64,000 nucleotides of DNA, from the NCBI RefSeq assembly GCF_002854065.1, contig NZ_CP024147.1. One strand, written 5' to 3'. The notes beneath the pieces are model-generated. The model worked only from the letters and a program-made list of their open reading frames with translations. It searched no databases and was not told the origin of the DNA. The translations under genes and the position numbers were made by a program. Source of the DNA: Escherichia coli (lineage in GTDB: Bacteria > Pseudomonadota > Gammaproteobacteria > Enterobacterales > Enterobacteriaceae). This document shows positions 9,421 to 61,476 of the stretch, piece after piece (position 1 is the first letter of the stretch; every line of letters begins with the position of its first letter).

Positions 9421-9451
9421 AATTAATACCCGATGCGACCAGCTTCTTACA

Positions 9452-12167: not shown

Positions 12168-12182
12168 GGTAATGACTCCAAC

Positions 12183-12880: not shown

Positions 12881-12963
12881 TGGAGCACCTCAAAAACACC
12901 ATCATACACTAAATCAGTAAGTTGGCAGCATCACCTATTATTGTTTAGCAAAATTAATCTAAT

Positions 12964-13007: not shown

Positions 13008-13035
13008 CATAAGAATTTTGGGTAATGACTCCAAC

Positions 13036-13733: not shown

Positions 13734-13831
13734 TGGAGCACCTCAAAAACACCATCATACACTAAATCAGTAAGTTGGCAGCATCACCGAATTTTGTATT
13801 AATTTATTTTAAAACTTAATTAATCATTTCC

Positions 13832-25170: not shown

Positions 25171-25854
25171 ATGAATCTAAAAAAGACACTATTAAGCGTG
25201 TTAATGATATCGCCACTCTGCATATTGACAGGGTGTGACTATATTGGAAAAGCAAAACTAATCGACGATCTCTCCAAACAACAAGAGTTGCAAAAAGGTA
25301 AAATAGAGCAACTTGAAAAACAACAAGAACAAGATAAACGCAAGATAGAACTATTTGAAAAACAGCAAACTGCCATCATAAATAGTACCAAAACGCTTGC
25401 TAGTGTGGTGAAGGCGGTTAAAGAAAAGCAGGATGAATTTGTCTTCACAGAATTTAACCCAGCACAAACACAATACTTCATTTTAAATAACGGCTCTGTC
25501 GGTTTGGCGGGTCGGGTGCTGGCTATTGATGCAGTTGAAAACGGCAGCGTTATTCGTATTTCGCTGGTCAACCTATTAAGCGTTCCCGTATCAAATATTG
25601 GTTTTCATGCTACATGGGGCAATGAAAGGCCCACCGATGCCAAAGCTCTGGCGAAGTGGCAACAATTACTTTTCAATACCACCCTGAATTCCACTCTGCA
25701 ATTAATGCCTGGTCAATGGCAAGACATTAATCTGACATTAAAAGGCGTTTCGCCTAATAACCTGAAGTATCTGAAGTTGTCCATCAATATGGACAATCTC
25801 CAGTTCGACACAGTTCAACCTGCTGAAACTCGGCAGCGAAAAAACAAAAAATAA
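25171..25854 (+). CDS. SadB-like inner-membrane lipoprotein (putative trimeric-autotransporter biogenesis helper)
   Basis: 227-aa ORF; signal peptide with lipobox LTGC and Asp at +2 (CD, inner-membrane retention signal); heptad-like coiled coil (QQELQKGKIEQLEKQQEQDKRKIELFEKQQ); AAGGA 8 nt before the ATG; 43 bp upstream of the adhesin gene. Confidence 0.75.
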   Translation: MNLKKTLLSVLMISPLCILTGCDYIGKAKLIDDLSKQQELQKGKIEQLEKQQEQDKRKIELFEKQQTAIINSTKTLASVVKAVKEKQDEFVFTEFNPAQTQYFILNNGSVGLAGRVLAIDAVENGSVIRISLVNLLSVPVSNIGFHATWGNERPTDAKALAKWQQLLFNTTLNSTLQLMPGQWQDINLTLKGVSPNNLKYLKLSINMDNLQFDTVQPAETRQRKNKK

Positions 25855-25897
25855 ATGCAGCTTCTGCGCTTATATCAAGGAATAGAGAACATCAATA

Positions 25898-28800: not shown

Positions 28801-31111
28801 TGATGCTGTGAACGGCTCGCAACTCTATACCACCAATAAGTACGTCGTAGATGCGCTGGGTGGTGGTGCCGAAGTCAATGCAGACGGCACCATCACTGCG
28901 CCGACGTACACCATTGCTAATGCTGATTACGATAACGTCGGTGATGCCCTGAACGCCATCGACACCACTCTCGATGATGCTCTGCTCTGGGATACGGACG
29001 CCGGTGAAAATGGTGCATTTAGCGCCGCTCACGGAAAAGATAAAACTGCCAGTGTAATCACTAACGTCGCAAACGGTGCAATTTCCTCCACCAGCAGCGA
29101 TGCTGTTAACGGCTCACAACTCTATACTACCAATCAGTACATAGTCGATGCGCTGGGTGGTGACGCAGAAGTTAACGCTGACGGCACCATCACCGCACCG
29201 ACTTACACCATTGCGAATACCGATTACAACAACGTCGGTGACGCCCTGGATGCGCTTGATGATAACGCCCTGCTGTGGGATGAGACTGCCAATGGCGGTG
29301 CAGGAGCCTACAATGCCAGCCATGACGGTAAAGCCAGCATCATCACTAATGTCGCTGATGGCAGTATTAGTGAGGACAGCACCGATGCAGTGAACGGTTC
29401 TCAGTTGAATGCGACGAATATGATGATTGAGCAGAACAGCCAAATCATCAATCAGCTTGCTGGTAATACCGACGCAACCTATATCGAAGAAAATGGCGCT
29501 GGTATCAACTACGTTCGTACTAACGACAACGGTTTAGCCTTTAACGATGCAAGCGCCTCTGGTGTCGGCGCTACAGCTGTAGGTTATAACGCTGTCGCGT
29601 CTGGTGCCAGCAGCGTAGCCATTGGTCAGAACAGCAGCAGCACCGTTGATACCGGTATTGCGCTGGGTAGCAGCTCCGTTTCCAGCCGTGTAATTGCCAA
29701 AGGTTCTCGTGACACTAGCGTAACGGAAAATGGCGTGGTGATTGGTTATGACACCACTGACGGCGAACTGCTAGGTGCATTGTCAATTGGTGATGACGGT
29801 AAATACCGCCAAATCATCAACGTAGCTGATGGTTCAGAAGCCCATGACGCCGTTACGGTTCGTCAGTTGCAGAACGCTATTGGAGCGGTCGCCACTACGC
29901 CAACCAAGTACTTTCACGCCAACTCAACGGCAGAAGACTCACTGGCCGTTGGTGAAGACTCGCTGGCAATGGGTGCGAAAACTGTCGTTAATGGTAATGC
30001 AGGTATTGGTATCGGTTTGAACACTCTGGTTCTGGCTGATGCGATCAACGGCATTGCTATCGGCAGTAACGCACGCGCAAACCATGCAAACAGTATTGCA
30101 ATGGGTAACGGTTCTCAGACCACCCGTGGTGCACAGACTGGCTACACCGCCTACAACATGGACGCACCGCAGAACTCTGTAGGTGAGTTTTCTGTTGGTA
30201 GTGAAGACGGTCAACGTCAGATCACCAACGTCGCAGCTGGTTCAGCGGATACCGATGCGGTTAACGTGGGTCAGTTGAAAGTCACTGATGAGCGCGTAGC
30301 GCAAAATACCCAGAGCATTACTAACCTGAACAATCAGGTCACTAATCTGGATACTCGCGTTACTAATATCGAAAACGGTATTGGCGATATCGTGACCACC
30401 GGTAGCACCAAGTACTTCAAGACCAACACCGATGGCGTAGATGCCAACGCCCAGGGTAAAGATAGCGTTGCGATTGGTTCTGGTTCCATTGCTGCCGCTG
30501 ACAACAGCGTCGCACTGGGTACAGGCTCCGTGGCCAACGAAGAAAACACGATCTCTGTGGGTTCTTCTACCAACCAGCGCCGTATCACCAACGTAGCTGC
30601 CGGTGTTAATGCCACCGATGCGGTTAACGTGTCGCAGCTGAAATCTTCTGAAGCAGGCGGCGTTCGCTACGACACCAAAGCTGATGGCTCTATCGACTAC
30701 AGCAACATCACTCTTGGTGGTGGCAACGGAGGTACGACTCGCATCAGCAACGTTTCCGCAGGTGTGAACAACAACGACGCGGTGAACTACGCGCAGTTGA
30801 AGCAAAGCGTGCAGGAAACAAAGCAATACACCGATCAGCGCATGGTTGAGATGGATAACAAACTGTCTAAAACTGAAAGCAAGTTGAGCGGGGGTATCGC
30901 TTCTGCAATGGCAATGACCGGTCTGCCGCAGGCTTACACTCCAGGTGCCAGCATGGCTTCTATTGGTGGCGGTACTTACAACGGTGAATCGGCAGTTGCT
31001 TTAGGTGTATCGATGGTGAGCGCCAATGGTCGTTGGGTCTACAAATTACAAGGTAGTACCAATAGCCAGGGTGAATACTCCGCCGCACTCGGTGCCGGTA
31101 TTCAGTGGTAA
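25898..31111 (+). CDS. upaG: trimeric autotransporter adhesin (YadA-like; UpaG/EhaG/SadA family)
   Basis: 1737-aa ORF; extended signal peptide [27 protein letters not shown]...; repetitive head/neck/stalk motifs; C-terminal YadA-type anchor (...[15 protein letters not shown]...[38 protein letters not shown]). Position between yibL and lldP fits what I recall for upaG/ehaG/sadA. Confidence 0.85.
27392..28390 (+). repeat. in-frame tandem repeats inside the adhesin gene (255-bp / 85-aa unit)
   Basis: Units start at 27392, 27647, 27902 and 28157 (the last 21 bp shorter); a degenerate fifth starts at 28391. Units are more than 95% identical by eye ([29 protein letters not shown]...TNLGE). Confidence 0.85.
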
Positions 31112-42247: not shown

Positions 42248-43207
42248 TTGTTTCCATTTCGTCGTAACGTTCTTGCATTTGCCGCTCTGTTGGCGCTCTC
42301 CTCCCCCGTAATTGCTGGCAAACTTGCCATCGTCATTGATGATTTTGGGTATCGCCCGCACAACGAAAACCAGGTGCTGGCGATGCCTTCCGCTATCTCC
42401 GTCGCTGTATTACCCGATTCACCGCACGCCAGAGAGATGGCGACCAAAGCGCATAACAGCGGTCACGAAGTGTTGATTCATCTCCCGATGGCACCGTTGA
42501 GTAAACAGCCGCTGGAGAAAAATACGCTACGCCCGGAGATGAGCAGCGACGAAATTGAGCGCATTATTCGTAGTGCGGTCAATAACGTGCCCTATGCCGT
42601 GGGGATCAACAACCACATGGGCAGCAAGATGACCTCTAACCTGTTTGGTATGCAGAAAGTGATGCAGGCGCTGGAGCGTTACAATCTTTACTTCCTCGAC
42701 AGCGTAACCATTGGTAATACCCAGGCGATGCGCGCCGCGCAAGGCACTGGCGTGAAGGTTATTAAACGGAAGGTGTTCCTCGACGATTCACAGAACGAAG
42801 CGGACATCCGTGTGCAGTTCAATCGCGCAATTGATCTGGCGCGTCGCAACGGTTCAACCATTGCCATTGGGCATCCTCACCCTTCAACGGTACGCGTGCT
42901 ACAACAGATGGTTTATAACCTGCCGCCAGACATTACGCTGGTAAAAGCCAGCAGCTTGCTGAATGAACCGCAGGTTGATACGTCTACACCGCCGAAAAAC
43001 ACTGTGCCCGACACACCGCGTAATCCGTTCCGTGGCGTGAAGCTGTGCAAACCGAAGAAACCGATAGAACCTGTTTATGCTAATCGCTTCTTTGAAGTAT
43101 TAAGCGAAAGCATCAGCCAGAGCACGCTGATCGTTTACTTCCAGCATCAGTGGCAAGGCTGGGGCAAACAGCCCGAAGCGGCGAAACTTAACGCTAGCGC
43201 AAATTAA
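42248..43207 (+). CDS. yibQ: divergent polysaccharide deacetylase family protein
   Basis: 319-aa ORF with N-terminal signal/TM; directly follows envC. Confidence 0.85.
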   Translation: MFPFRRNVLAFAALLALSSPVIAGKLAIVIDDFGYRPHNENQVLAMPSAISVAVLPDSPHAREMATKAHNSGHEVLIHLPMAPLSKQPLEKNTLRPEMSSDEIERIIRSAVNNVPYAVGINNHMGSKMTSNLFGMQKVMQALERYNLYFLDSVTIGNTQAMRAAQGTGVKVIKRKVFLDDSQNEADIRVQFNRAIDLARRNGSTIAIGHPHPSTVRVLQQMVYNLPPDITLVKASSLLNEPQVDTSTPPKNTVPDTPRNPFRGVKLCKPKKPIEPVYANRFFEVLSESISQSTLIVYFQHQWQGWGKQPEAAKLNASAN

Positions 43208-44228
43208 AGGCGCTACGCGTAATGCGATGGTGCGACCGCGTTTTGTCGCGCCATTGCCATAAGCGGAAAGACCACAGTAACGCCTGGTAACCCACCTTCA
43301 CGCTGCGCACATTGGTAATCAGGCGCTTATACATACCGGAAGTAAATATCTCGGCAATCATCCGTTGGCGGGTAAGAATATCCGGCTCTTTGCGCACCGC
43401 ATGGCAAACACGCAATGCTTCGTAAGTTATTTGCTGATGAAATTCCGGATAAATCGTAATTTTGTCGGCATAATTTCGATTTAATTTCTCCAGCAGGCGG
43501 GTAATCTTAATATAGTGACGTTGATAATTAAGGTTTTTATTCCCTTGTCTATGCAACCGACTCACTGACGTATTATGCAGATAATATTTATATAATGATT
43601 GCTCGGTATATCGCGCACGCAGCGCATTAAACATGAATTCTGTTGTCCAGACAATATCCTGATGATGTAATCCGGCAATAAATTTAATGTTATTTTTAAC
43701 AATAACATCGCGGCGATAAACCCCCATCCAGACAACGTGAGTCCAACGGCGCGAAGAAAGCCCCATCCGCAGCCAGTCCGGGCCGGTTAAGACACCGGTT
43801 GAGCGAAGGCGATCGCTGGGGATGGATTGCCAGGTTTCTCCCGTTTCACGAAAACACCAGTCAGCGTTGCACTGCGCCACGTCGAGGTCGTCCTCTAACG
43901 CCATGGTCATCAGCGTTTCGTACATGGTGGGATAGACTTCATCGTCAGCATCGACAAAAGCGACATATTTGCCCGTTGCCACTTCAATCCCACGATTACG
44001 CGCCACCGATGCGCCAGCATTCGCCTGATGCAACAAACGAACGTGCGGATAGTTTTCTGCGTAATGCTTTGCTATTTCAACAGAATTATCCGTTGAACCA
44101 TCGTTAATAATAATGATTTCCAGAGCAGTCCAGGTTTGCGTAATTAAAGATTCCATACAAGTGCGGAAATCATCGCCCGCATTATATAACGGAATAATAA
44201 CACTAAGTTTATTGGTGCTGTTCATCAT
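43194..44228 (-). CDS. waaH: family 2 glycosyltransferase (LPS core modification)
   Basis: 344-aa ORF; GT2 signature (SVIIPLYNAG...VAFVDADD). Confidence 0.85.
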   Translation of the reverse strand: MMNSTNKLSVIIPLYNAGDDFRTCMESLITQTWTALEIIIINDGSTDNSVEIAKHYAENYPHVRLLHQANAGASVARNRGIEVATGKYVAFVDADDEVYPTMYETLMTMALEDDLDVAQCNADWCFRETGETWQSIPSDRLRSTGVLTGPDWLRMGLSSRRWTHVVWMGVYRRDVIVKNNIKFIAGLHHQDIVWTTEFMFNALRARYTEQSLYKYYLHNTSVSRLHRQGNKNLNYQRHYIKITRLLEKLNRNYADKITIYPEFHQQITYEALRVCHAVRKEPDILTRQRMIAEIFTSGMYKRLITNVRSVKVGYQALLWSFRLWQWRDKTRSHHRITRSAFNLR

Positions 44229-46698: not shown

Positions 46699-46972
46699 TG
46701 CGATTCTCCAGACAGGGCAAATTCCAGCACATATTACCCAAACTTATAGGTCGCGACGAGATGACGCGTTAACACTTCTGCAAAATTCAGGATAAATAAC
46801 GTGTATCTTGATGTCTCTCAACACCTACAGATAGTAGAAAAACTGTACAGTTTTGGCTGAGCATAATGATGAGTGATTTTACTGCATTGATATAAAAAGA
46901 AAAAATGATGCCAAAACATCATTTTTCCTATCTCAGTTGGCATCAAAACGCTACCCACTAATGGCGGGAAAC

Positions 46973-47830
46973 CTATTTTCTTGAAAGGAAAATTCTCAGC
47001 GCCTGCATTTTTGCCCCTAAAGTGTTACTCCTGAAGCAGCGAAACAAATCGAACCATTTTCCTCTTCCCAGATAGTTTAGGTTGAAGAGATCGGAACGTT
47101 TGTAATAGCACATGACAAAAATGCCCTGGTCATCGTCCACAATGTTATTGTTTAGTGTTATTTTTTGACTTTCCAGAACTAATTTATAGAATTCTTTCCA
47201 TTTATGCTGTGAACCAACAATTGCGCCCCCAATAATATATACATGATTGCCAATCATGAAATCAAAAGCCTGTTGTTGAGATGTAACAGTAAGCCCTTTT
47301 TTTATAGTGAAAAGATGCATCTTATTTTCATCAAATGGGAAATCCCAAATTTTCAATCCTCGAGTCACATTTGGCTTACGGCAATAGCCAAAATCTATCC
47401 ACGCAACAAGAGGCGTTTTCACTAAGCCCATGTTGATAGCTTTATTTACAAAATAGGCCTTAAGGTTACATACCAAAACATACTCTGGTGACCAGTACTC
47501 TGGGTTTTTTAATTGTCGAGGCTCAAGTCTATTTGTAAACGACTCATCTTTTTGAATTTTTTCGATACGACTTCTGATATATCTAAATTTCTTTTTTATA
47601 TCGATAGCGATAACCGTTGTTGGTTTTCCGTTGCGAATCGCTTCAACCCTTGGTTTCAAATCGGGAGAAGTGAAAATAATCATCTCATTTTCAAGTACGG
47701 CCAGACGCTCAAAGTAACTAAAATAAACATCAACTGAACGAGCTAGTTTTTCACGGAACCCTTTATTAGCAGTCCAATCCCCTCTACCAATGTCAAAATA
47801 TGCAGTGATAATTGTGGTGGATGATTTCAT
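46973..47830 (-). CDS. htrL: HtrL-family protein (LPS-related)
   Basis: AT-rich ORF, about 285 aa from MKSSTTIITAYFDIGRGDWT...; start could instead be 47845. Confidence 0.75.
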   Translation of the reverse strand: MKSSTTIITAYFDIGRGDWTANKGFREKLARSVDVYFSYFERLAVLENEMIIFTSPDLKPRVEAIRNGKPTTVIAIDIKKKFRYIRSRIEKIQKDESFTNRLEPRQLKNPEYWSPEYVLVCNLKAYFVNKAINMGLVKTPLVAWIDFGYCRKPNVTRGLKIWDFPFDENKMHLFTIKKGLTVTSQQQAFDFMIGNHVYIIGGAIVGSQHKWKEFYKLVLESQKITLNNNIVDDDQGIFVMCYYKRSDLFNLNYLGRGKWFDLFRCFRSNTLGAKMQALRIFLSRK

Positions 47831-48133
47831 TACTAATAAGACCATTAATATAAAAAAATAATTATATCATAAATATTAACAGAATGTATACTGTATATTA
47901 TCCATTCAAATGCTTCCGTTATTTACCATACATCGGAATATTGATACTAAAGCACTATTCACGTGCAAAACCAACATCCGCCATGAAGGACTAGCTAAAA
48001 CCCAAACTAGTTTGTTGCAATTAGCATCCTTGCATCTCTATGTAAAGGGCTGAAGGGATTCGGATGTGATGGTATGATTACAGACATTCATGTCTGAGAT
48101 TGTCTCTGACTCCATAATTCGAAGGTTACAGTT

Positions 48134-49066
48134 ATGATCATCGTTACCGGCGGCGCGGGCTTTATCGGCAGCAACATCGTTAAGGCCCTGAATGATAAAG
48201 GCATCACCGATATTCTGGTGGTGGACAACCTGAAAGACGGCACCAAGTTTGTGAACCTGGTGGATCTGGATATCGCGGACTATATGGATAAGGAAGACTT
48301 CCTGATCCAGATTATGGCTGGCGAAGAGTTCGGCGATGTCGAAGCGATTTTCCACGAAGGCGCATGCTCTTCCACCACCGAGTGGGATGGCAAGTATATG
48401 ATGGATAACAACTATCAATACTCCAAAGAGCTGCTGCACTACTGTATGGAGCGCGAAATCCCGTTCCTGTATGCATCTTCCGCGGCCACTTACGGCGGAC
48501 GCACCTCCGACTTTATTGAATCCCGCGAGTACGAAAAACCGTTGAACGTCTACGGTTACTCAAAATTCCTGTTTGATGAATATGTTCGTCAAATCCTGCC
48601 TGAAGCGAACTCGCAGATTGTTGGATTCCGTTATTTCAACGTTTATGGACCGCGTGAAGGCCATAAAGGCAGCATGGCGAGCGTCGCTTTCCATCTCAAC
48701 ACCCAGCTTAACAACGGTGAATCACCGAAGCTGTTTGAAGGTAGCGAGAACTTCAAACGCGACTTCGTCTATGTGGGCGACGTGGCTGATGTGAATCTGT
48801 GGTTCCTGGAAAATGGCGTTTCCGGCATCTTCAATCTCGGTACTGGTCGTGCGGAATCCTTCCAGGCTGTAGCTGATGCTACGCTGGCTTATCACAAGAA
48901 AGGCCAGATCGAATACATTCCGTTCCCGGATAAACTGAAAGGCCGCTATCAGGCGTTCACTCAGGCAGATCTGACGAATCTGCGCGCGGCGGGTTACGAC
49001 AAACCGTTCAAAACCGTTGCTGAAGGTGTAACGGAATACATGGCCTGGCTGAATCGCGACGCATAA
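48134..49066 (+). CDS. hldD: ADP-L-glycero-D-manno-heptose 6-epimerase
   Basis: 310-aa [26 protein letters not shown]... (NAD-binding GxxGxxG). Confidence 0.95.
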
Positions 49067-49075: not shown

Positions 49076-50122
49076 ATGAAAATACTGGTGATCGGCCCGT
49101 CTTGGGTTGGCGACATGATGATGTCGCAAAGTCTCTATCGCACGCTCCAGGCGCGCTATCCCCAGGCGATAATCGATGTGATGGCACCGGCATGGTGCCG
49201 TCCATTATTATCGCGGATGCCGGAAGTTAACGAAGCTATTCCTATGCCTCTCGGTCACGGAGCGCTGGAAATCGGCGAACGCCGCAAACTGGGTCATAGT
49301 CTGCGTGAAAAGCGCTACGACCGCGCCTACGTCTTACCCAACTCCTTCAAATCTGCATTAGTGCCTTTCTTCGCGGGTATTCCTCATCGCACCGGCTGGC
49401 GCGGCGAGATGCGCTACGGTTTACTCAACGATGTACGCGTGCTCGATAAAGAAGCCTGGCCGCTAATGGTGGAACGCTATATAGCGCTGGCCTATGACAA
49501 AGGCATTATGCGCACAGCACAAGATCTGCCGCAGCCATTGTTATGGCCGCAGTTGCAGGTGAGCGAAGGTGAAAAATCATATACCTGTAATCAATTTTCG
49601 CTTTCATCAGAACGTCCGATGATTGGTTTTTGCCCGGGTGCGGAGTTTGGTCCGGCAAAACGCTGGCCACACTACCACTATGCGGAGCTGGCAAAGCAGC
49701 TGATTGATGAAGGTTATCAGGTGGTTCTGTTTGGCTCGGCGAAAGATCATGAAGCGGGCAATGAGATTCTTGCCGCTTTGAATACCGAGCAGCAGGCATG
49801 GTGTCGGAACCTGGCGGGGGAAACACAGCTTGATCAAGCGGTTATCCTGATTGCAGCCTGTAAAGCCATTGTCACTAACGATTCTGGCCTGATGCATGTT
49901 GCGGCGGCGCTCAATCGTCCGCTGGTTGCCCTGTATGGTCCGAGTAGCCCGGACTTCACACCGCCGCTATCCCATAAAGCGCGCGTGATCCGTTTGATTA
50001 CCGGCTATCACAAAGTGCGTAAAGGTGACGCTGCGGAGGGTTATCACCAGAGCTTAATCGACATTACTCCCCAGCGCGTACTGGAAGAACTCAACGCGCT
50101 ATTGTTACAAGAGGAAGCCTGA
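49076..50122 (+). CDS. waaF: LPS heptosyltransferase II
   Basis: 348-aa ORF, GT9 family. Confidence 0.95.
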   Translation: MKILVIGPSWVGDMMMSQSLYRTLQARYPQAIIDVMAPAWCRPLLSRMPEVNEAIPMPLGHGALEIGERRKLGHSLREKRYDRAYVLPNSFKSALVPFFAGIPHRTGWRGEMRYGLLNDVRVLDKEAWPLMVERYIALAYDKGIMRTAQDLPQPLLWPQLQVSEGEKSYTCNQFSLSSERPMIGFCPGAEFGPAKRWPHYHYAELAKQLIDEGYQVVLFGSAKDHEAGNEILAALNTEQQAWCRNLAGETQLDQAVILIAACKAIVTNDSGLMHVAAALNRPLVALYGPSSPDFTPPLSHKARVIRLITGYHKVRKGDAAEGYHQSLIDITPQRVLEELNALLLQEEA

Positions 50123-50125
50123 CGG

Positions 50126-51100
50126 ATGCGGGTTTTGATCGTTAAAACATCGTCGATGGGCGATGTTCTCCATACGTTGCCCGCACTCACTGATGCCCAG
50201 CAGGCAATCCCAGGGATTAAATTTGACTGGGTGGTGGAAGAAGGGTTCGCACAGATTCCTTCCTGGCACGCTGCCGTTGAGCGAGTTATTCCTGTGGCAA
50301 TACGTCGCTGGCGTAAAGCCTGGTTCTCGGCCCCCATAAAAGCGGAACGCAAAGCGTTTCGTGAAGCGCTACAAGCAGAGAACTATGACGCAGTTATCGA
50401 CGCTCAGGGGCTGGTAAAAAGCGCGGCGCTGGTGACGCGTCTGGCGCATGGCGTAAAGCATGGCATGGACTGGCAAACCGCTCGCGAACCTTTAGCCAGC
50501 CTGTTTTACAATCGTAAGCATCATATTGCAAAACAGCAGCACGCCGTAGAACGCACCCGCGAACTGTTTGCCAAAAGTTTGGGCTATAGCAAACCGCAAA
50601 CCCAGGGCGATTATGCTATCGCACAGCATTTTCTGACGAACCTGCCTACAGATGCTGGCGAATATGCCGTATTTCTTCATGCGACGACCCGTGATGATAA
50701 ACACTGGCCGGAAGAACACTGGCGAGAATTGATTGGTTTACTGGCTGATTCAGGAATACGGATTAAACTTCCGTGGGGCGCGCCGCATGAGGAAGAACGG
50801 GCGAAACAACTGGCGGAAGGATTTGCTTATGTTGAAGTATTGCCGAAGATGAGTCTGGAAGGCGTTGCCCGCGTGCTGGCCGGGGCTAAATTTGTAGTGT
50901 CGGTGGATACGGGATTAAGCCATTTAACGGCGGCACTGGATAGACCCAATATCACGGTTTATGGACCAACCGATCCGGGATTAATTGGTGGGTATGGGAA
51001 GAATCAAGTAGAGTGTCGTTCTACAAGTATGTCTCTTGCAGATTTGCCAGCTCAAACCGTTTTTCAAAATTTAAATCTTGAAATAATAATCAATAAGTGA
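50126..51100 (+). CDS. waaC: LPS heptosyltransferase I
   Basis: 324-aa ORF, GT9 family; last ~30 residues differ from the K-12 C-terminus as I recall it. Confidence 0.9.
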   Translation: MRVLIVKTSSMGDVLHTLPALTDAQQAIPGIKFDWVVEEGFAQIPSWHAAVERVIPVAIRRWRKAWFSAPIKAERKAFREALQAENYDAVIDAQGLVKSAALVTRLAHGVKHGMDWQTAREPLASLFYNRKHHIAKQQHAVERTRELFAKSLGYSKPQTQGDYAIAQHFLTNLPTDAGEYAVFLHATTRDDKHWPEEHWRELIGLLADSGIRIKLPWGAPHEEERAKQLAEGFAYVEVLPKMSLEGVARVLAGAKFVVSVDTGLSHLTAALDRPNITVYGPTDPGLIGGYGKNQVECRSTSMSLADLPAQTVFQNLNLEIIINK

Positions 51101-51113
51101 CATCGGAGATAAG

Positions 51114-52322
51114 ATGACCTCAACATTATTTTTCTCTCTCGAGAAAAAAAACTGGATAGCGTACTGGAACAGAGCTCTCGTATTCTTATTCATTACCACC
51201 TATTTTTTGGGTGAGATTACAAGGTATAAACATCTTATTGTTATTCTTATGACAATAACGACAATCGTCTATCTCTGCAAACGGCCAAAACACTATCTCT
51301 CACTATTTAAAACATTTCTTTTTGGTAGTGTTGCCATATTAACTATTGCTGCATTGCTGTCACTTCTTCAATCCCCTGATGCAGGTGCTAGCATGAAGGA
51401 AATTTTCAAAGCTATTATTGAGAATACTTTACTATGCACAATAGCAATACCGGTCATATTGAGAGACGAGAAAAGAGAAGATGTCGAAAAAATCGTTTTC
51501 TTCTCATTTATTAGTGCGTTGGGCTTACGCTGTTTTTCTGAATTGATTACCTATTATAAGGACTATCAACAAGGGATAATGCCATTCGCAGATTATAGAC
51601 ACCGTAGCATTTCTGACTCGATGGTCTTTTTATTCCCTGCATTGTTAAATCTCTGGCTTATCAAATCAGCAAAATACCGCATTTCTTTTGTGGTTCTAAG
51701 CTTTATTTTTATTTTTCTGATATTAGGAACTTTATCCAGAGGGGCCTGGCTTTCCGTGTTAGTCATTGGATTAATATGGATTCTGATGTTTAAACAATGG
51801 AAGTTACTATTAGTAGGAGTAATGGTTTCCATCATTGCATTGTCGGTTATTTTCACACATAAGGAGATGACCGCAAAGCTAACGTATAAACTTCAACAAA
51901 CTAATAGTTCTTATCGCTATGCAAATGGTACTCAAGGCAGCGCACTCGATCTAATATTAGAAAATCCTGTTATTGGTTATGGTTACGGTAACGTTGCATA
52001 TAAAGATGTCTATAATAAACGTGTCGTTGATTATCCAGAATGGACCTTTAGACAATCAATAGGGCCACATAATTTTGCGCTATTCATCTGGTTTGGCACT
52101 GGTTTATTAGGACTGGTAAGTCTTATGATGCTATACTGTGCAATATTGAAAGAGTGTATAAAAAATGGCGTCCAGAATAAATACCGCTCACCATATAATG
52201 CATATTATATAATCTTACTATCTTTTATAGGTTATTTTGTTATCCGTGGAAACGTAGAACAAATTGAACCAAATTTATTAGGCGTTTACGCCGGCTTATT
52301 ATTAGCGATGAAAAACAAGTAA
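51114..52322 (+). CDS. waaL: O-antigen ligase
   Basis: 402-aa AT-rich polytopic membrane ORF at the waaL position after waaC. Confidence 0.85.
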   Translation: MTSTLFFSLEKKNWIAYWNRALVFLFITTYFLGEITRYKHLIVILMTITTIVYLCKRPKHYLSLFKTFLFGSVAILTIAALLSLLQSPDAGASMKEIFKAIIENTLLCTIAIPVILRDEKREDVEKIVFFSFISALGLRCFSELITYYKDYQQGIMPFADYRHRSISDSMVFLFPALLNLWLIKSAKYRISFVVLSFIFIFLILGTLSRGAWLSVLVIGLIWILMFKQWKLLLVGVMVSIIALSVIFTHKEMTAKLTYKLQQTNSSYRYANGTQGSALDLILENPVIGYGYGNVAYKDVYNKRVVDYPEWTFRQSIGPHNFALFIWFGTGLLGLVSLMMLYCAILKECIKNGVQNKYRSPYNAYYIILLSFIGYFVIRGNVEQIEPNLLGVYAGLLLAMKNK

Positions 52323-52323
52323 A

Positions 52324-52356
52324 AAATAAAAAAGGCTGCATAATGCGGCCTTTTTA
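52324..52356. terminator. bidirectional rho-independent terminator between convergent waaL and outer-core genes
   Basis: aaaaaaggctgcat-aatgcggcctttttatttatt: GC stem flanked by A- and T-tracts. Confidence 0.6.
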
Positions 52357-52357
52357 T

Positions 52358-53500
52358 TTATTCAAACCAATTATGAATAACCTCTTCGAATCTTTGAGTT
52401 ACGCCATCCCAACTGTAGTGATCAAACACAAAATCCTGACCTTGCTTTGCAACTGCTGTTAATTCAGGATTCGCTAACGTTTTTAAAATATCGCTGCTTA
52501 TGGAGTCTGCAGTCATAGGTTCTTTTAAATGGAATCCCGTAGTATTTTCTTTGACAAATTCCGTCATCCCCCCACGCGTACTCACTAAAACAGGCTTACC
52601 AGCACCCATAGCTTCAATTGCCACCATGCAAAATGGTTCCTGGAACTGGGAAGGAATGACGACTAAATCTGCCAGTGGGTAATAACAATGCATCTTTTCA
52701 GGCGGTATGCTTCCTAACATAATGCAACGATCCTTCAAACGTTTTGCAATTTCCCTGACATTGCGTTGATATGCACCTTTGTCACTTTTACTCATTTCTG
52801 TATAATCACCAATCACAACTAATTTTAAATTTTTGTGAGCAGCGGCCAATTTTTCGAATGATTGCATCAACAGCAATATGCCTTTGTCAGGGACGATACG
52901 CCCAGCATAAAAAATAATTTTCTCTTCAGGGGAGATATTAAGTTCGCTTCTAGTGATCGGCTGAAAAGTAGATTGATAGGTTTCTAAATCAATTCCATTT
53001 GGTACAATCTCAATATCTGCATTTGCTAAATAAGATTGGTAATACTTTTTCAAGTATAAACTAGGCACTATCATTTTAACATTTTGCTCAAGCAATTTTG
53101 GTTCAAATGCATTATGCATATGTATAACCACTCTTGCCTGAGGAGCTCGCTTACGAATTTGAGTGTATAGCTTCATACTATTATGTACTACAATAACACT
53201 TTCTTTCGTTATAGGAAAATCATGTGCAATATTCAATATTCTCTGTGAATATGGAAGAGGATCAAGTCTTGTCCATTTTTGAAATAACCGCTTATATATG
53301 CGACTGAATCCAACCCTATGAATACTACAATTATCATTAACAAAGGTGTAATTTGAGTATCCTGGATTCTTGATACAAACAATACGATTTGGGAAATTGG
53401 TACGCTGAGCAACCTGATACATCCACGTTTCAACAGCGGCCGCTCCGCGAGGAGGAATTGAAAAAATAGGAGTAACTGTAAATATTATTTTATCAACCAT
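52358..53500 (-). CDS. waaD: family 1 glycosyltransferase of the LPS outer core (R3-type WaaD-like)
   Basis: 380-aa ORF with GT1 (GT-B) C-terminal motifs; last gene of the waaQ operon. The symbol is from the R3 gene order as I recall it. Confidence 0.6.
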   Translation of the reverse strand: MVDKIIFTVTPIFSIPPRGAAAVETWMYQVAQRTNFPNRIVCIKNPGYSNYTFVNDNCSIHRVGFSRIYKRLFQKWTRLDPLPYSQRILNIAHDFPITKESVIVVHNSMKLYTQIRKRAPQARVVIHMHNAFEPKLLEQNVKMIVPSLYLKKYYQSYLANADIEIVPNGIDLETYQSTFQPITRSELNISPEEKIIFYAGRIVPDKGILLLMQSFEKLAAAHKNLKLVVIGDYTEMSKSDKGAYQRNVREIAKRLKDRCIMLGSIPPEKMHCYYPLADLVVIPSQFQEPFCMVAIEAMGAGKPVLVSTRGGMTEFVKENTTGFHLKEPMTADSISSDILKTLANPELTAVAKQGQDFVFDHYSWDGVTQRFEEVIHNWFE

Positions 53501-53508
53501 CTCGAATG

Positions 53509-54522
53509 TTAACCTTTCATAAAATTATATTTAATTGCTGTAAAAAAACCATCGAGAAATTTTTTCTGGTAAAGCAAGTGTTTATATTCTTCTTTGTACT
53601 CATGTTTTTTAACAGCTTTTTTATAAGGTATATTTCTCCATGGTGATATATTATAAATATTACGAAAATAATCTGCAGATGCGTAGTTCGCCCAATCATG
53701 CCATGGCTTTGTTACACCAGTATAATGTATGAAGACAGTTTCATCATTAATAAACCGGGTGTAATATTCACTATTTTTTTCTTCAAATTCTGACTTTATA
53801 GTATAAATACAGTTATATTTTCTCGGTAATATTTTAGCATGATGTAGAAACATTAAGTTTAAAATATCTTGATCCGGATATTTTAATTTTTTGATAATTG
53901 ACTCATCTGATAATAGTTCAAAGAATTTCTCCGTTAGTCTTTGTTTTAACCATTCCCGTAAATTAATATACATTACACCAGAGTTAAAATAGCTACCGTT
54001 AAAATCCTCATTACCTAAACGCTCAGCGCTTTTACTTTGCATAGCATCTACATCAATTACCACAGCCCCATATTCATCTTTAAACTCTAATGCTATTAAC
54101 TCGTTCAATGAACCCTTACAGACGATATCAGCATCAAGATATAATAATGAATCCAATCGCGCAGAAAAATAGTCAAATGAAAGCAAACGATAATAAATAG
54201 ATACTGGCCAGATATTTGATTGAGGTAGCGTCTTCAATGGCTCAGAATCAATATGATATAATTTAATTACTGTTTGATACTTCGTTGCTAATTGTGATAA
54301 TAATTCAATATAATCTTTGTCTAAGTAATCAGCGATTATGTGAAAGGTAAATTTGTTTTGTTTATTATTTTCAAGAATTGAAGCAATTGAAATCGCAGCC
54401 CCAACCTGGTAGTTCTCATCAATACCCCATGAGACATTAAACGTTTCCCGTTCATCAAGTTTAACGGGGCGCTTGTCCAGTTCAATTATATCTTTAAATT
54501 GAGTAAGATGTTTAAAATCCAA
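53509..54522 (-). CDS. waaJ: family 8 glycosyltransferase of the LPS outer core (R3-type WaaJ-like)
   Basis: 337-aa AT-rich ORF; GT8 motifs (DxD region …YLDADIVC…). Confidence 0.6.
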   Translation of the reverse strand: MDFKHLTQFKDIIELDKRPVKLDERETFNVSWGIDENYQVGAAISIASILENNKQNKFTFHIIADYLDKDYIELLSQLATKYQTVIKLYHIDSEPLKTLPQSNIWPVSIYYRLLSFDYFSARLDSLLYLDADIVCKGSLNELIALEFKDEYGAVVIDVDAMQSKSAERLGNEDFNGSYFNSGVMYINLREWLKQRLTEKFFELLSDESIIKKLKYPDQDILNLMFLHHAKILPRKYNCIYTIKSEFEEKNSEYYTRFINDETVFIHYTGVTKPWHDWANYASADYFRNIYNISPWRNIPYKKAVKKHEYKEEYKHLLYQKKFLDGFFTAIKYNFMKG

Positions 54523-54546
54523 TTTAATTACCCTTCATCATAATCA

Positions 54547-55254
54547 TTATTTGCTCTTCAAACCTAGTTTGACTTTTACATCCCTGATTGCTTTTTTAAT
54601 TTTCTTTTTGAATATAAGATATGTATAGCCAAAGTCTTTCAATTCATTTTTTATATTATAGTGCCGTTCAAGATCAATGCGATCTTTTGCTTTTAAAACT
54701 GCGGTTGTTTTTTTACCTGAAAGGTCAATTAGTCTTAAACCTTTTTCGGATACTATAAAATTTCCTTTATGAGGATCGCCAGACACCATTCCATGCTGAT
54801 GCAACTCTTTTATCGATTCTGATAATTGATCCTTCAGTTCTTCAGAAATTTCCAAATACTCATTTAACCCGATACCTTCAATATACTCAATGAGCATAAT
54901 ATAATAATGCGCGAAATTTAATGTTTTACGTTCAGCAAGCAAAAAATAGTCATTAATTGATTGAATGCCTTCACCACGTACCCGATCGGTTTGATAAATT
55001 AAATTTTCATAATAATCTTTTTTTATGCAAGATTTTAAGAAACGTTCGATCATTTTATGCTTTGGCGCATAAACTTTAAGTACAAGAGGTCCACGAGCAG
55101 TGTCAATAAGAATAACTTTAGTATCATCAATAGAACGAAAAACTTTTAATGTTTTAACCCTGCAAGTTAAAAAATCATTCAGAACTTGCTCATAAAAGGG
55201 ATCATTATCTTTTATGAAAACTTTCAACCCATTTATCGTTTTATTATATATCAT
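54547..55254 (-). CDS. waaY: LPS core heptose II kinase
   Basis: 235-aa ORF; kinase-like motifs (…HQHGMVSGDPHKGNFIV…). Confidence 0.8.
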   Translation of the reverse strand: MIYNKTINGLKVFIKDNDPFYEQVLNDFLTCRVKTLKVFRSIDDTKVILIDTARGPLVLKVYAPKHKMIERFLKSCIKKDYYENLIYQTDRVRGEGIQSINDYFLLAERKTLNFAHYYIMLIEYIEGIGLNEYLEISEELKDQLSESIKELHQHGMVSGDPHKGNFIVSEKGLRLIDLSGKKTTAVLKAKDRIDLERHYNIKNELKDFGYTYLIFKKKIKKAIRDVKVKLGLKSK

Positions 55255-55279
55255 ATTGAATTATTTTAACCTTAAATCT

Positions 55280-56287
55280 TTAAAAGCATTTTTCTTTATA
55301 ATACTTTAAATAATTAAAAATGCCCGCCATATAATGCTTTTGTTTAAATTTATGTTTTGCACAATACCGATACTGATTGCTATTTACAGGTTTAAGTAAA
55401 TCTTCTTTACACCACGGAGAAGATGCTTTGGCGATCAAAAAACTACGTGACACCGGATAGTCAGCCCATTCATGCCAGGGTTTTGTAGGTCCCACATAGT
55501 GTATAAACACAGTGTCATCATTGACTGGATTATCAACTTTGTCTTTTAATTCATAGTTAATACTATATCGGGTATTATATTTCCCAGAAATAAACTTCAC
55601 TTTACCATTCAATAATACATTCAGTACATCTTGATCAAGGTGGGTGATTTTACTTACCCAATCTGGATCACGCAACATTTCAATAGCTTTTGACGAAATG
55701 TTATTAAGATTCCACTCATCAATATTTATCAGTAAAAAACCAGCATTGAAATATCCAGAAGCTAATTGTGGTGTAGTTAATACCGAGGCTCGATTCTGCC
55801 ACCATTCAACATCTCTTTCAGCTACAACTGCGGCAATTTCATTAGTAGAGAATTGATAATCTAAGAGTTCTTTAATACTACCCTTGCAAGCAATATCTGC
55901 ATCAAGATATAGTATTTTTTCATGTTTATTATAGAAATAGTCTGCAATTATAAATCGAAAATATGTAGCGTAAGTCCAGTTTTTCGTGCTTGGTAATGAC
56001 TTCAGCTTATCACAATTGATAACATAAATATTAATTCTTGAATTATATTGTTTTGCTAAATCGGAAAAATATAACTTGTCTTTATCACTGATATAATCTG
56101 TGAAAACATGAAATTCACAAGAGATTTCTCTATTGTTTAATAGAATAGATGCGATGGCTACACCACATCCAAAAAGAAAATTTCTGTCAATACCAAATGC
56201 TATATCAAGAGTATTTTTAGATCTTATATTTTGATAATGAAAATTATACTCAAAAAGGATGATGTCACTATCATTGAGTTGAGACAT
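55280..56287 (-). CDS. waaI: family 8 glycosyltransferase of the LPS outer core (R3-type WaaI-like)
   Basis: 335-aa AT-rich ORF paralogous to the ORF at 53509-54522 (…YLDADIACKG…). Confidence 0.6.
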   Translation of the reverse strand: MSQLNDSDIILFEYNFHYQNIRSKNTLDIAFGIDRNFLFGCGVAIASILLNNREISCEFHVFTDYISDKDKLYFSDLAKQYNSRINIYVINCDKLKSLPSTKNWTYATYFRFIIADYFYNKHEKILYLDADIACKGSIKELLDYQFSTNEIAAVVAERDVEWWQNRASVLTTPQLASGYFNAGFLLINIDEWNLNNISSKAIEMLRDPDWVSKITHLDQDVLNVLLNGKVKFISGKYNTRYSINYELKDKVDNPVNDDTVFIHYVGPTKPWHEWADYPVSRSFLIAKASSPWCKEDLLKPVNSNQYRYCAKHKFKQKHYMAGIFNYLKYYKEKCF

Positions 56288-56329
56288 ATTTATTCTGTAT
56301 CCAAAATTTTGGCAAAAATAAGTTACGGG

Positions 56330-57136
56330 TTACAACGATTTTCGAATCGTTCTTTCCCTGATTTTTGTGGCTTTTGCTTCTGCTTGCGACAGCAGTCCTT
56401 GTTCCTGCTTGAGAATGTCTTTAAGCGGGGCGGCAAAATACACTTTCATAAACCGCCAGATATCCCGCTGAGTCAGGCCGATATTCATCGAAGAAAAATA
56501 AAGCCCTATAAGATCTTTATCGCGCCAACGACGTGGAACGCGCGTGCGAAGCTGCGCCCGGTGCAGGTCAATTACCGAAATTTTTAACTCCTCTTCCTTA
56601 CCGGAAAAAGGCAAGTGCAACAGGAAATGACAGATATAACAGTCACGGTGGTTAATGCCCGCAGCATGCATATCGCGCACCATCGTCGCGACACGCTTAA
56701 TAAGCATACGCTTTACGCGAACATCTGGAGGGTTAGTCGCCCAGTCAGCACAGTAATCTTCCAGACTTATGGTTGGTGTCAGATCTTCGGTAATAATAAA
56801 TGAAGTTCTGGTCAGCGGATTCATGCCTTTTTCGCCAAATGCCACCCCATACATAGTATCAACGCCGACATCCCGCAGTCGATGAATCGCATTCCATTCG
56901 CGGTCTGCGCCTAATACTGGCATCCGCAATGAGAGTAAATTTTTGATTATCTCTTTCAGGGTCGTGCCGCGATGCCATTTGAGAAAATAGCTTTTGCCCG
57001 CCATTTCAAAGCGCAGAGTACGGCGAGTTTCCAGTTCACGAAATACCTCACCCTGCAAGGTTTTAACTTCCTCAAAAGGATCTTTACCGCGCCATAACGT
57101 GGCAAACGGCTCTTTAAGTTCAACCATCCAGACCAC
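56330..57136 (-). CDS. waaP: LPS core heptose I kinase
   Basis: 268-aa ORF; kinase-fold motifs (…[13 protein letters not shown]…). Confidence 0.9.
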
Positions 57137-58244
57137 CCGTTATGATATCCGCCGCTTTCTCTGGCAGACTGTATAAATCTTGTGTATCAGCATAATGTCG
57201 CGCATTTTCCGCCCAGGCCTGGCGCAATGAAGATTGCGTTAACGCTTTGCGTAAAATCTCATTCAATGTTTCCTGGCGGAATGGCTCAACAATAGCCTCG
57301 CCGCAATTGGCCTCGACAATATAATGCGCATAGCCACAAACGGCTGTTGTTAGTACCGGTAATCCTGCAGTAATCGCTTCCAGCAGCACAATTCCCGCCG
57401 CTTCCTGGTAGGCAGGATGCAGTAATAAATCCGCCGCCGCCATTAATTCCGAGACATCGTTGCGCCCCGAGAAGAAGTGAACATTACTGCGCACGCCGCG
57501 TTTTTCTGCCAGCGCCTCAAATTTTCGCGGTTTATCCTGCCCAACAACATATAGCAATGTGTTGTGGCGCAGCGAATCCGGTAACGAAGCAAGTGCTTCA
57601 ATGGAACGATCGACACCTTTACGCGTGAAGTCTGAACCGACCTGCAACAATAAATATTGTTGTTCGGTTATTCCATTCTTCTTACGGAAGATTTCACGGC
57701 TATTAGCTGGCTGCTGGCTATATTTACGATCAGGATAAATCCCCGGTGGCAGAATATGAAAACGCTCCGCTTCAGTCTGATAATGTTTCTGGAAATCGGC
57801 GATTTGCTTATCTGTCAGCATCAGCAGCTGTGTCGGCTTGCCCTGTTCGAAGGTTGCCCGCTCAAAGGCGGCATAATGGCGATAACGTGACGTCAGGCGA
57901 TAGAAAAAGCCTTTTTCCTGCGCTACTTTCTCGGCATAACAAACATCAGCGGCATAATAAACGTCCAGCCCCGGCATTTTATTGAATCCAACGACTTTAT
58001 CGACGGGATGTTCGCGTAAATGTTTTTGCACCCAGGCAAAATACTCCGCATTGCGCCCGTGATTGGTATGCGATTTAACCGGCACTTTGATCAGTTCAAA
58101 TACATCAGGGCATTCGCCTTCCCACGACTGGGTATAAACCCGAACATGATGACCTCGGGCGGCGACTGTCTGAGCAATACGCATAAAATCGCGCTGCAAA
58201 CCGCCAAAGGGAAAATATTTATATAAACAAAAAGCAACGATCAT
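57120..58244 (-). CDS. waaG: LPS glucosyltransferase I
   Basis: 374-aa ORF, GT1 family; 17-bp overlap with waaP start. Confidence 0.95.
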
Positions 58245-59299
58245 AACGACGTACCTGTCGTGGAGGAGGGCAGTAATTTATCGACAGCAGCAATGATATC
58301 TGCCGCCGGAATAACCGAAAGATACATCTCATTTCGGTCACGCTGATCGCGCGTTGGCATTTCCCGGTAATCTCCCGCCCAGAATTGAATCATGTTATTT
58401 GACCAGGGACGCCAGAAAATATGGTCTGTCGCACCAAACAGCGATATCAGCGGCGTATTAACTGCAGCGGCAATATGCGCCGGTGCGGAATCAACGCCAA
58501 TAAACAGCTGCGCATGATCGATTAACGCACCAAGTTCCGGGAAGGTCACCTTTCCAGCCAGCGCCGTTACTGGTGGCGTCTGGCATCCCTGCGCAATTTC
58601 ATTGACGCAGGCCAGATCGTCTTTATCTGGGCCGGACGTCAGAACGACTTCATAACCACGAGCATGTAAGGCATCAATCACAGCGGAAAACTTGGCGTTG
58701 TCCCAGCATTTGAAGATTTGCCGCGCCGTAGGTTGGATAACCACATAATTTTGTCCAACACCAGCGTGATCAAGTTCGCGACGCATACGTTTCCAGCTTG
58801 CAGGCGGGTAACTCATGGTTGTCTGCTTCACCAACGAATCAAGTCCCAATGGTGTCAGCACGGATAAGTTACTTTCCACCACATTTCCACCCTGCAACGG
58901 CACCAAATGGGTGAAACTTTTACGCCAAAAAGCAGACTGCCGATGATGATAATCCTGGGAAATTTTCACACGGGCATTTAATAAGCGAACCAGTATAGCA
59001 ACCATCCATTGATCGGTAAGATTGACGATAAGGTCATACTTATTGGCACGTAATACCTTGATGAGATGAAAAAAGTTGGCAATTTTTTCTGAGGCTTTTG
59101 CTTTTTTATTTTTTATGCCGTAGAGCGCGTTAATCTCTGGATTTTCAGACAGGATCGGGATGGTGTCCTGATAAAGCAGCACATCGATTTTTGCGTCAGG
59201 GTAATTTTTTTTCAGCGAACTAATGACGGGAGTAGTTAATAACATATCCCCATGAAAACGCATCTTAATGAGCAAAATTCTTCGAAATGGCTTATCCAC
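58241..59299 (-). CDS. waaQ: LPS heptosyltransferase III
   Basis: 352-aa ORF, GT9 family; first gene of the operon; 4-bp overlap with waaG. Confidence 0.9.
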   Translation of the reverse strand: MDKPFRRILLIKMRFHGDMLLTTPVISSLKKNYPDAKIDVLLYQDTIPILSENPEINALYGIKNKKAKASEKIANFFHLIKVLRANKYDLIVNLTDQWMVAILVRLLNARVKISQDYHHRQSAFWRKSFTHLVPLQGGNVVESNLSVLTPLGLDSLVKQTTMSYPPASWKRMRRELDHAGVGQNYVVIQPTARQIFKCWDNAKFSAVIDALHARGYEVVLTSGPDKDDLACVNEIAQGCQTPPVTALAGKVTFPELGALIDHAQLFIGVDSAPAHIAAAVNTPLISLFGATDHIFWRPWSNNMIQFWAGDYREMPTRDQRDRNEMYLSVIPAADIIAAVDKLLPSSTTGTSL

Positions 59300-59348
59300 A
59301 AGTAACTCTTTTTGTTGAGATTATCCGATTAAGGTGAAGCAGAAAAAG

Positions 59349-59360
59349 CACGCTACCGCC
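59349..59360 (-). promoter_or_regulatory. ops element (RfaH recruitment site) in the waaQ operon leader
   Basis: Plus strand CACGCTACCGCC is the reverse complement of GGCGGTAGCGTG, 50 nt upstream of the waaQ start. Confidence 0.75.
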
Positions 59361-59711
59361 CCAGGCTCAACAGCTACCTGAATACTGATACCGCACTGAT
59401 ATTGACGCGCTAGTGTATCACTTCTTTCGCGGCAATCCGACCCGAATGATTTTTAAGCACACTGTTGATTTTCAATAAAGAAATCAATCAAATATAATCA
59501 TTAGCAACCATATTCTTTCACTGTTGCTCTGCGATTTCTTCCTGCACGTACAGCAGAAATCAATGAATCGCATAAAAATACAAAAAAAGTATAGATGTTC
59601 AGCAAGAATTGGCGGGTAAATTGCTATTTAAGTCAAAAACGGGAAAAGTAATGGTAAAGCCACAGCTAAATACATAGAATCCCCAGCACATCCATAAGTC
59701 AGCTATTTACT

Positions 59712-61476
<1,765 letters not shown>

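Follow-up and report, generated by a model that had tools for sequence, protein, structure and literature searches.

The waa locus of an Escherichia coli strain predicted to carry the R3 lipopolysaccharide core type, with a type-specific junction inside waaC

Introduction

Which lipopolysaccharide (LPS) core does an Escherichia coli strain make, and where in its chromosome does the DNA specific to that core type begin and end? These questions are raised by the waa (rfa) locus in a 64,000-nucleotide stretch of E. coli DNA (NCBI RefSeq assembly GCF_002854065.1, contig NZ_CP024147.1), hereafter referred to as the window and numbered from its first base. A first-pass annotation made from the sequence alone had proposed that positions 50126–56287 hold an R3-type outer-core gene set with AT-rich genes and a divergent 3' end of waaC. 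The answer matters because the core type determines which O antigens can be ligated and which phages and antibodies recognize cells of the rough or semi-rough kind. Core type is also correlated with pathotype, R3 being dominant among enterohaemorrhagic E. coli.

We report that the window almost certainly contains the chromosomal waa locus of a strain with the R3 core type, as judged from gene content, protein comparisons and the fit of typing primers. The R3 locus is a standard one that has already been described, and no new system is involved; the practical value for this DNA is a correct core label, R3. Two observations modestly refine the published picture, one concerning the C-terminal end of WaaC in all core types and the other concerning R3-like loci in other genera.

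Results

Gene content and assignment to core type

Read from waaP towards waaL, the open reading frames (ORFs) and their Pfam matches give a family 8 glycosyltransferase (GT8), a WaaY kinase, a second GT8 protein and a GT1 protein. The first-pass annotation had seen this order (with a waaY-like kinase) and had taken it to be the R3 layout waaI-waaY-waaJ-waaD rather than that of K-12, and both parts of the claim hold: the gene table is identical to that of O157:H7, which is documented as R3 (PMC11394844; PMC13293308; PMC8715443), and the same interval in a K-12 genome reads rfaS-waaB-waaO-rfaJ-rfaY-waaZ-waaU. The gene waaD has been reported in R3 strains only (PMC3899070). Reference loci were taken from complete genomes, one each for R3 (O157:H7), K-12, R1 and R2 and two for R4, and the types of the fetched loci were assigned by gene content, with waaV/GT2 indicating R1, waaX/GT25 indicating R4 and waaK-waaZ-waaB indicating R2.

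Comparison of the proteins with those of the different core types, which the annotation had suggested as a check, also points to R3: the five type-specific products are 97.3–99.7% identical to their O157:H7 counterparts and have 40–58% identity or no match in R1, R2, R4 and K-12. The putative R3-type O-antigen ligase gene waaL (51114–52322, plus strand; Pfam Wzy_C; NCBIfam RfaL equivalog, 690 bits) encodes a protein with 98.5% identity to O157:H7 WaaL; its best non-R3 relative is that of R2 at 51%, and it has no match at E <= 1e-5 in the R1, R4 or K-12 loci. The remaining four genes are on the minus strand. The 380-residue GT4/GT1 product of waaD (52358–53500; Pfam Glycos_transf_1) is 99.7% identical to that of O157:H7 and 57% identical to its best non-R3 match, R2 WaaK, the gene itself being absent from the R1, R2, R4 and K-12 loci compared. 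The product of waaJ (53509–54522; 337 aa; Pfam GT8 and GT8C) has 97.3% identity to the O157:H7 protein that is named WaaJ by the Prokaryotic Genome Annotation Pipeline (PGAP), and 44% at best to a non-R3 protein. The R3 allele of the heptose II kinase gene waaY (54547–55254; 235 aa; Pfam WaaY, 311 bits; NCBIfam RfaY equivalog, 387 bits) specifies a protein 97.9% identical to that of O157:H7 and 51–58% identical to those of other types. Finally, the GT8 protein WaaI (55280–56287; 335 aa), a predicted UDP-galactose:(glucosyl)LPS alpha-1,3-galactosyltransferase (NCBIfam NF011718, 616 bits against a cut-off of 461), is 98.8% identical to the O157:H7 protein and 58% identical to the best non-R3 one. 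The Pfam families of all products from waaC to waaQ are as expected, with E-values from 1e-21 to 1e-93.

Core typing by the polymerase chain reaction (PCR), likewise proposed by the annotation and carried out here in silico with published primers (PMC13293308), gives the same answer. The two R3 primers fit perfectly at 53418–53437 and 54416–54438 (R3-R) and predict a waaD-waaJ product of 1,021 bp, which is the published size, and the R1, R2, R4 and K-12 typing primers find no site in the window even when up to three mismatches are tolerated. For waaI (O157:H7 and Shigella flexneri 2a) and for waaJ and waaD (S. flexneri 2a), knockout primers from the literature sit on the exact ends of the ORFs, thus fixing the gene names. 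Among 5,426 complete E. coli genomes, 1,363 (25%) have the whole block, each as a single chromosomal copy.

A junction within waaC

The first-pass annotation had noted that the last 30 or so codons of waaC depart from those of K-12, and had placed a recombination breakpoint inside the 3' end of the gene; the divergence is confirmed, and the intragenic junction is real and can be located precisely. The complete ORF (50126–51100, plus strand; heptosyltransferase I; Pfam Glyco_transf_9) consists of two parts. Nucleotides 1–881 (codons 1–294; 50126–51006) belong to the core genome, being 99.7% identical to K-12 DNA and matched in 5,423 of the 5,426 genomes. Nucleotides 882–975 (codons 295–324 and the stop; 51007–51100) form an R3-specific tail in which codons 295–324 read VECRSTSMSLADLPAQTVFQNLNLEIIINK, as against MVCRAPRENLINLNSQAVLEKLSSL in K-12. 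Identity to K-12 DNA collapses at nucleotides 881/882 (window 51006/51007, codon 294), and a step in guanine-plus-cytosine (GC) content from 0.523 to 0.319 coincides with this position. As many genomes have the tail as have the outer-core genes (1,363 in both cases), and the tail therefore belongs with those genes to the type-specific cassette, of which it is the left edge. The junction is not a chance pattern, because all of the non-R3 genomes among the matches listed (of about 4,060 non-R3 genomes) lose similarity at query positions 881–884 (window 51006–51009, codons 294–295).

A divergent tail is not peculiar to the comparison of R3 with K-12. All five core types differ in their waaC tails, which start within about 20 nt of one another, those of R1, R2, R4 and K-12 parting some 18 nt further downstream, past a shared CRAP motif. 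The tails of all types keep the common pattern C-R-x5-L-x2-L-x4-V, suggesting old divergence under structural constraint and not unrelated sequence. Residues 1–294 of WaaC are 99–100% identical to those of the other E. coli types and 80–84% identical to those of relatives in Cedecea, a Silvania-like contig and Enterobacter. Residues 295–319 show 28–46% identity to other E. coli types (28% for K-12), 60% to Cedecea sp. and 56% to the Silvania-like contig, values that concern 25 residues and are indicative only; the tail of Enterobacter sp. Ap-916, at 36%, is not closer to the R3 tail than are the E. coli tails. This incongruence between body and tail supports a mosaic waaC, and it speaks for low GC content as an old feature of the cassette genes. 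A literature search, the coverage of which did not include Heinrichs et al. (1998), returned no relevant account of an intragenic waaC junction or of a type-specific WaaC tail, and we regard the presence of such a tail in every core type as a modest refinement of what has been published.

Edges and composition of the cassette

How far the type-specific DNA extends depends on the locus with which it is compared. Against the R1 and R4 loci, blastn shows near-identity stopping at 51006–51009 and returning, at 98–99.4%, exactly at 56330, the waaP stop codon, which delimits an R3-specific block of 5.3 kb (51007–56329) with a GC content of 0.331, compared to 0.510 elsewhere in the window. Against K-12, sliding identity and alignment delimit a divergent block of 8.6 kb from the waaC tail to the waaQ leader (51007–59621): identity is 0.46–0.85 up to about 59644 and 0.96–1.0 past it, the last difference lies near 59621, and near-identity returns between waaQ and waaA, at about 59622. 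The genes waaP, waaG and waaQ are 64–85% identical in DNA sequence to those of K-12 and R2 (the fetched R2 locus ends within waaQ), and against either of these types they belong to the divergent block.

The AT-richness of waaL and the outer-core genes relative to waaF, waaG, waaP and waaA, which had been remarked on at first pass, is readily seen, with GC contents of 0.30–0.37 for the former (waaL, 0.352; waaD, 0.371; waaJ, 0.305; waaY, 0.302; waaI, 0.312) and 0.47–0.54 for the latter (waaF, 0.536; waaP, 0.472; waaG, 0.483; waaA, 0.539); waaQ falls within this higher range, as does the conserved part of waaC. To count waaG and waaP among the conserved genes, as the annotation did, is correct for composition, which is near normal, but not for sequence, given their divergence from K-12 and R2.

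We infer that the sharp edges are the ends of homology between core-type alleles. The AT-rich cassette (51007–56329) would bring its own version of the last 30 or so WaaC residues, with the waaP stop codon bounding it on the right when R1 or R4 is the comparison; the cassettes would be old and mutually diverged, and the DNA outside them would have been homogenized across E. coli by homologous recombination. In this strain, waaF and the 5' portion of waaC resemble those of K-12, with four mismatches in 1.9 kb (19 for O157 against K-12), and waaQGP is 99.4% identical to that of an R4 strain.

R3-like loci in other genera

The nearest relatives of WaaL outside Escherichia are in Cedecea (67–72%), Silvania (65%) and Enterobacter sp. 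(65%). Four genomes or contigs have a syntenic locus, namely Cedecea sp. FDAARGOS_727, a Logan contig, a Silvania-like metagenome contig and Enterobacter sp. Ap-916, all with the order waaC-waaL-GT4 (380 aa)-GT8 (339–341 aa)-GT8 (336 aa)-waaP-G-Q. Their proteins are 65–71% (WaaL), 74–76% (WaaD), 69–73% (WaaJ) and 72–73% (WaaI) identical to those of R3, and the flanking WaaQ, WaaG and WaaP proteins are 67–87% identical to those of the window, similar to the cassette proteins (65–76%). The relatives show an equal dip in GC content, to 0.34–0.47 from 0.50–0.59. Since homologues in other genera occupy the same chromosomal position, share the GC dip and show identities like those of the flanks, low GC content is a long-standing property of the outer-core genes and not a sign of recent import. 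A homologue of the central region thus exists outside Escherichia and Shigella at the protein level, contrary to an earlier report that there is none (PMC8715443), and the occurrence of R3-like loci with the same GC dip in Cedecea and Silvania is the second modest refinement of the published picture. We also note that waaY is present in every E. coli core type examined and missing from all four non-Escherichia loci, such that the R3 layout equals that of the relatives with waaY added.

A 1-bp deletion at the end of waaC

Alignment with O157:H7 reveals a 1-bp deletion at 51097–51100 (plus strand), where the window has one T and other R3 genomes have TT (AAGTTGACA to AAGTGACA). Loss of this T (window 51098) directly makes a TGA stop codon at 51098–51100 without adding out-of-frame residues, and WaaC ends with ...EIIINK at residue 324, as opposed to ...EIITNKLTSEIR at residue 330, a loss of six residues. 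In place of the ATGA in which the waaC stop and waaL start codons usually overlap there is a 13-nt spacer, which retains a GGAG Shine–Dalgarno sequence (51105–51108) five bases ahead of the waaL ATG. Among the 1,363 complete R3 genomes only two match the window across the deletion site, but the exact 324-residue protein is encoded on 169 public contigs from several archives, so that this is a real lineage allele and not a sequencing error. In the CUWW06 genome, the waa region of which differs from the window at 3 of 18,162 positions, PGAP flags rfaC as 'frameshifted'.

The shortened protein matches the NCBIfam RfaC equivalog NF008204, a model of 322 positions, over residues 1–319 with 632.9 bits (cut-off 437), retains an intact Pfam GT9 domain (residues 76–315), and matches the WaaC structures 2GT1 and 6DFE over residues 1–315 at E = 1e-203. 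Because the proteins of K-12 (319 aa), R2 (318 aa), Cedecea (320 aa) and R4 (also within 318–320 aa) are shorter still and the RfaC model is fully matched, the 324-residue enzyme is probably functional and the deletion neutral, and the 'frameshifted' pseudogene call is probably a false alarm.

Operons, signals and proposed functions

The genes are predicted to form two operons. On the plus strand, hldD-waaF-waaC-waaL begins with hldD (rfaD in the CUWW06 annotation), an ORF at 48134–49066 for ADP-glyceromanno-heptose 6-epimerase, followed by the core-genome gene waaF (49076–50122), the product of which is 100% identical to K-12 WaaF; this operon would provide the ADP-heptose epimerase, heptosyltransferases II and I, and the R3 O-antigen ligase. 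On the minus strand, waaQ-G-P-I-Y-J-D would be transcribed from a JUMPstart/ops leader. Its first gene, waaQ (58241–59299), encodes heptosyltransferase III (Pfam GT9; 99% identical to R1, R3 and R4, 73% to K-12), and is followed by waaG (57120–58244), encoding glucosyltransferase I of family GT4 (Pfam GT4; 99% to R1, R3 and R4, 88–90% to R2 and K-12), and waaP (56330–57127), encoding heptose I kinase (Pfam Kdo/WaaP; 97–99.6% to R3, R1 and R4, 84% to K-12 and R2). The conserved right flank is waaA (59712–60989, plus strand), the gene for Kdo transferase, with 99.5–99.8% amino acid identity to all types tested.

The leader contains a JUMPstart element with the ops sequence GGCGGTAG at 59349–59387 (minus strand; Rfam RF01707, 55.2 bits against a gathering threshold of 35, E = 1.5e-10), 50 nt upstream of the waaQ start. 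JUMPstart/ops is a signal for RfaH-dependent antitermination. Between the convergent waaL and waaD genes there is a terminator-like palindromic hairpin of 12 pairs, flanked by an A-run and a T-run (52329–52355), which is likely to act as a bidirectional terminator for both operons. Promoter-like sites were no commoner than in shuffled sequences (35 compared to 32.3 ± 5.9).

In the proposed pathway WaaG would add glucose I, the heptose kinases WaaP and WaaY would phosphorylate heptose I and II, respectively, and WaaQ would add heptose III. The outer core would then be extended by WaaI with alpha-1,3-galactose, by WaaJ with alpha-1,2-glucose and by WaaD with alpha-1,2-glucose, after which WaaL, the ligase, would attach the O antigen. 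The linkages formed by WaaI, WaaJ and WaaD are those that we infer from the literature, the assignments having been taken from secondary citations and PGAP names. PGAP names R3 waaI 'waaO' and R3 waaD 'lipopolysaccharide N-acetylglucosaminyltransferase', and a typing study refers to the R3 waaD PCR target as a heptose 6-epimerase (PMC13293308), a mix-up with the old use of the name waaD for rfaD/hldD.

Neighbouring genes and other genomes

Several features of the surrounding DNA and of related genomes were observed in passing. In the genome of E. coli EC18 (NZ_CP060914.1) the R3 match is split in two by an IS5 insertion inside waaJ-waaY-waaI, with an IS5 transposase annotated between the two parts; this strain is likely to be a natural rough or core-truncated variant. 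A further core gene, waaH (yibD; 43194–44228, minus strand), for UDP-glucuronate:LPS(HepIII) glycosyltransferase, is intact in the window and K-12 and frameshifted in the annotation of O157:H7 Balcarce_14.2. Between kbl and hldD, a segment with a GC content of 0.37 (46803–48085) carries yibB/htrL (46973–47845, minus strand); the window shares it with K-12, O157:H7 and Cedecea, whereas the genomes used as examples of R1, R2 and R4 lack it, and it is thus a second presence/absence polymorphism beside the waa locus.

Further upstream, a large gene (about 25835–31111, plus strand) encodes a YadA-like trimeric autotransporter adhesin (about 1,758 aa in CUWW06). It is preceded by a DUF3251 gene and contains repeats of some 255 bp at 27293–28468, within which there is a small length difference from CUWW06. 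Upstream of the waa region the window is not collinear with CUWW06, having extra DNA flanked by insertion sequence (IS) IS1. Two IS1 copies in direct orientation (12168–12935 and 13020–13788) lie 84 bp apart, and the first has removed the 5' end of yiaY, the remaining ORF of which (11155–12156) fits positions 51–383 only of the Fe-alcohol-dehydrogenase model. CUWW06 has one IS1 there and lacks window positions 6600–12167 (yiaU, yiaV, aldB and the yiaY fragment), which looks like an IS1-mediated deletion polymorphism. At 913–5477, a position that in K-12 is presumably occupied by yiaJ and the yiaK-S operon, the window has an IclR-family fragment followed by genes for an AraC-type regulator (1055–1870, minus strand), a GPH-family sugar symporter (2096–3496, plus strand) and a GH127-like hydrolase (3483–5477, plus strand).

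Discussion

Several points weigh against the assignment of an R3 core. The core structure is predicted from genes only, and a complete R3 core is also said (reportedly by Kaniuk et al. in 2004) to require wabB, an unlinked N-acetylglucosamine (GlcNAc) transferase gene outside the waa locus. The sugar added by WaaD is contested, PGAP and NCBIfam (subfamily model NF012028) naming a GlcNAc transferase and one study an alpha-1,2-glucosyltransferase (PMC3899070), with deletion of waaD credited elsewhere with GlcNAc loss (PMC3184986). The window allele, a minor one, is about 1.5% diverged from O157:H7 overall, its waaJ-waaY-waaI segment is about 2% off the majority R3 allele and within 1% of that in 15 of the 1,363 genomes, and PGAP gives the window type of WaaJ no specific name, calling it a generic GT8 protein. 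These last observations, together with the existence of hybrid K-12/R2 and R1/R4 loci (PMC13293308), could be taken to indicate a hybrid or novel core type that keeps the R3 layout and has an altered sugar specificity arising from the diverged waaJ-waaY-waaI genes. We consider this extremely improbable, given that the five proteins are full length and at least 97.3% identical to those of O157:H7, that mismatches are evenly spread (1–13 per 500 nt) and no stretch looks like that of another type, and that no gene has been gained or lost relative to R3 and both R3 typing primers fit perfectly. A different objection is that waaC is a true pseudogene, as PGAP has it in the near-identical CUWW06 genome, in which case the LPS would be heptose-less and deep-rough and the R3 outer-core enzymes would have no acceptor. 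The rarity of the deletion among complete R3 genomes is in keeping with this, but the stop codon is created directly and takes only the last 6 of 330 residues, what remains is longer than the functional WaaC proteins of K-12 and R2 and spans the whole GT9 domain and the RfaC model (633 bits against 437), the exact protein recurs on many contigs, and the downstream genes are all intact. As waaC deletion mutants grow poorly (PMC11394844), a null allele is also unlikely to persist, and the chance that the gene is truly inactive seems to us very small.

The origin of the AT-rich cassette is a separate matter. The abrupt GC step at the junction would fit a cassette acquired recently by horizontal transfer from a donor of low GC content, with a crossover at waaC codon 294 in the lineage of this strain, and horizontal transfer of the variable region has been argued from its GC content (PMC8715443). 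All 1,363 R3 genomes, however, share the junction, and the junctions of all five types lie within about 20 nt of one another, as expected of an old allele boundary and not of an event in the window lineage; homologous genes, likewise showing the GC dip, occupy this chromosomal site in Cedecea, the Silvania-like contig and other Enterobacterales, at identities to R3 near those of the neighbouring waaQ, waaG and waaP; and there is no IS, phage or integrase remnant in the 48–61 kb region. Recent import is therefore highly unlikely. A more speculative proposal, and one that we put forward tentatively as a possibility with the odds still against it, is that the five core types are ancient alleles, older than the genus and held by balancing selection exerted by phages and immune pressure, with R3 representing a lineage that extends to Cedecea and Silvania, and that the allele-specific C-terminal helix of WaaC may be matched to waaL through translational coupling or protein contacts. 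The reasons for entertaining it are that the WaaC tail groups with Cedecea (60%) and the body with E. coli (99%), that the GC dip recurs in other genera, and that the junction is common to all types.

For annotators of such genomes, three labels call for caution: 'frameshifted' for rfaC, 'waaO' for waaI, and GlcNAc transferase for R3 waaD.

Among known systems, the locus is closest to the R3 locus of O157:H7 and S. flexneri 2a (reference strain F653), which has the same gene content and order, hldD-waaF-waaC-waaL followed on the opposite strand by waaD-J-Y-I-P-G-Q. The O157:H7 locus has the same waaC tail, both junctions and the R3 PCR amplicon in common with the window, and differs in having a 330-residue WaaC and the ATGA overlap of waaC and waaL, whereas the window has a 324-residue WaaC and has lost the overlap. 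The locus of K-12 lies at the same chromosomal site with the same flanks (hldD, waaF, waaC nucleotides 1–881 and waaA) at 98–100% identity, and has the same two-operon architecture and JUMPstart leader, but its outer-core genes are waaS-B-O-R(J)-Y-Z-U, without waaD, and its WaaP, WaaG and WaaQ proteins are 73–90% identical to those of the window. R2 and Salmonella-type loci have waaL in the same orientation downstream of waaC, and it is here that two R3 proteins have their closest E. coli relatives (WaaL, 51%; WaaD/WaaK, 57%), Salmonella RfaL being 54% identical to R3 WaaL; they differ by the presence of waaZ, waaB and an extra GT8 gene, by a different gene order, and in that WaaK is a GlcNAc transferase. 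The loci of Cedecea, the Silvania-like contig and Enterobacter belong to other genera and, unlike R3, have no waaY between the two GT8 genes.

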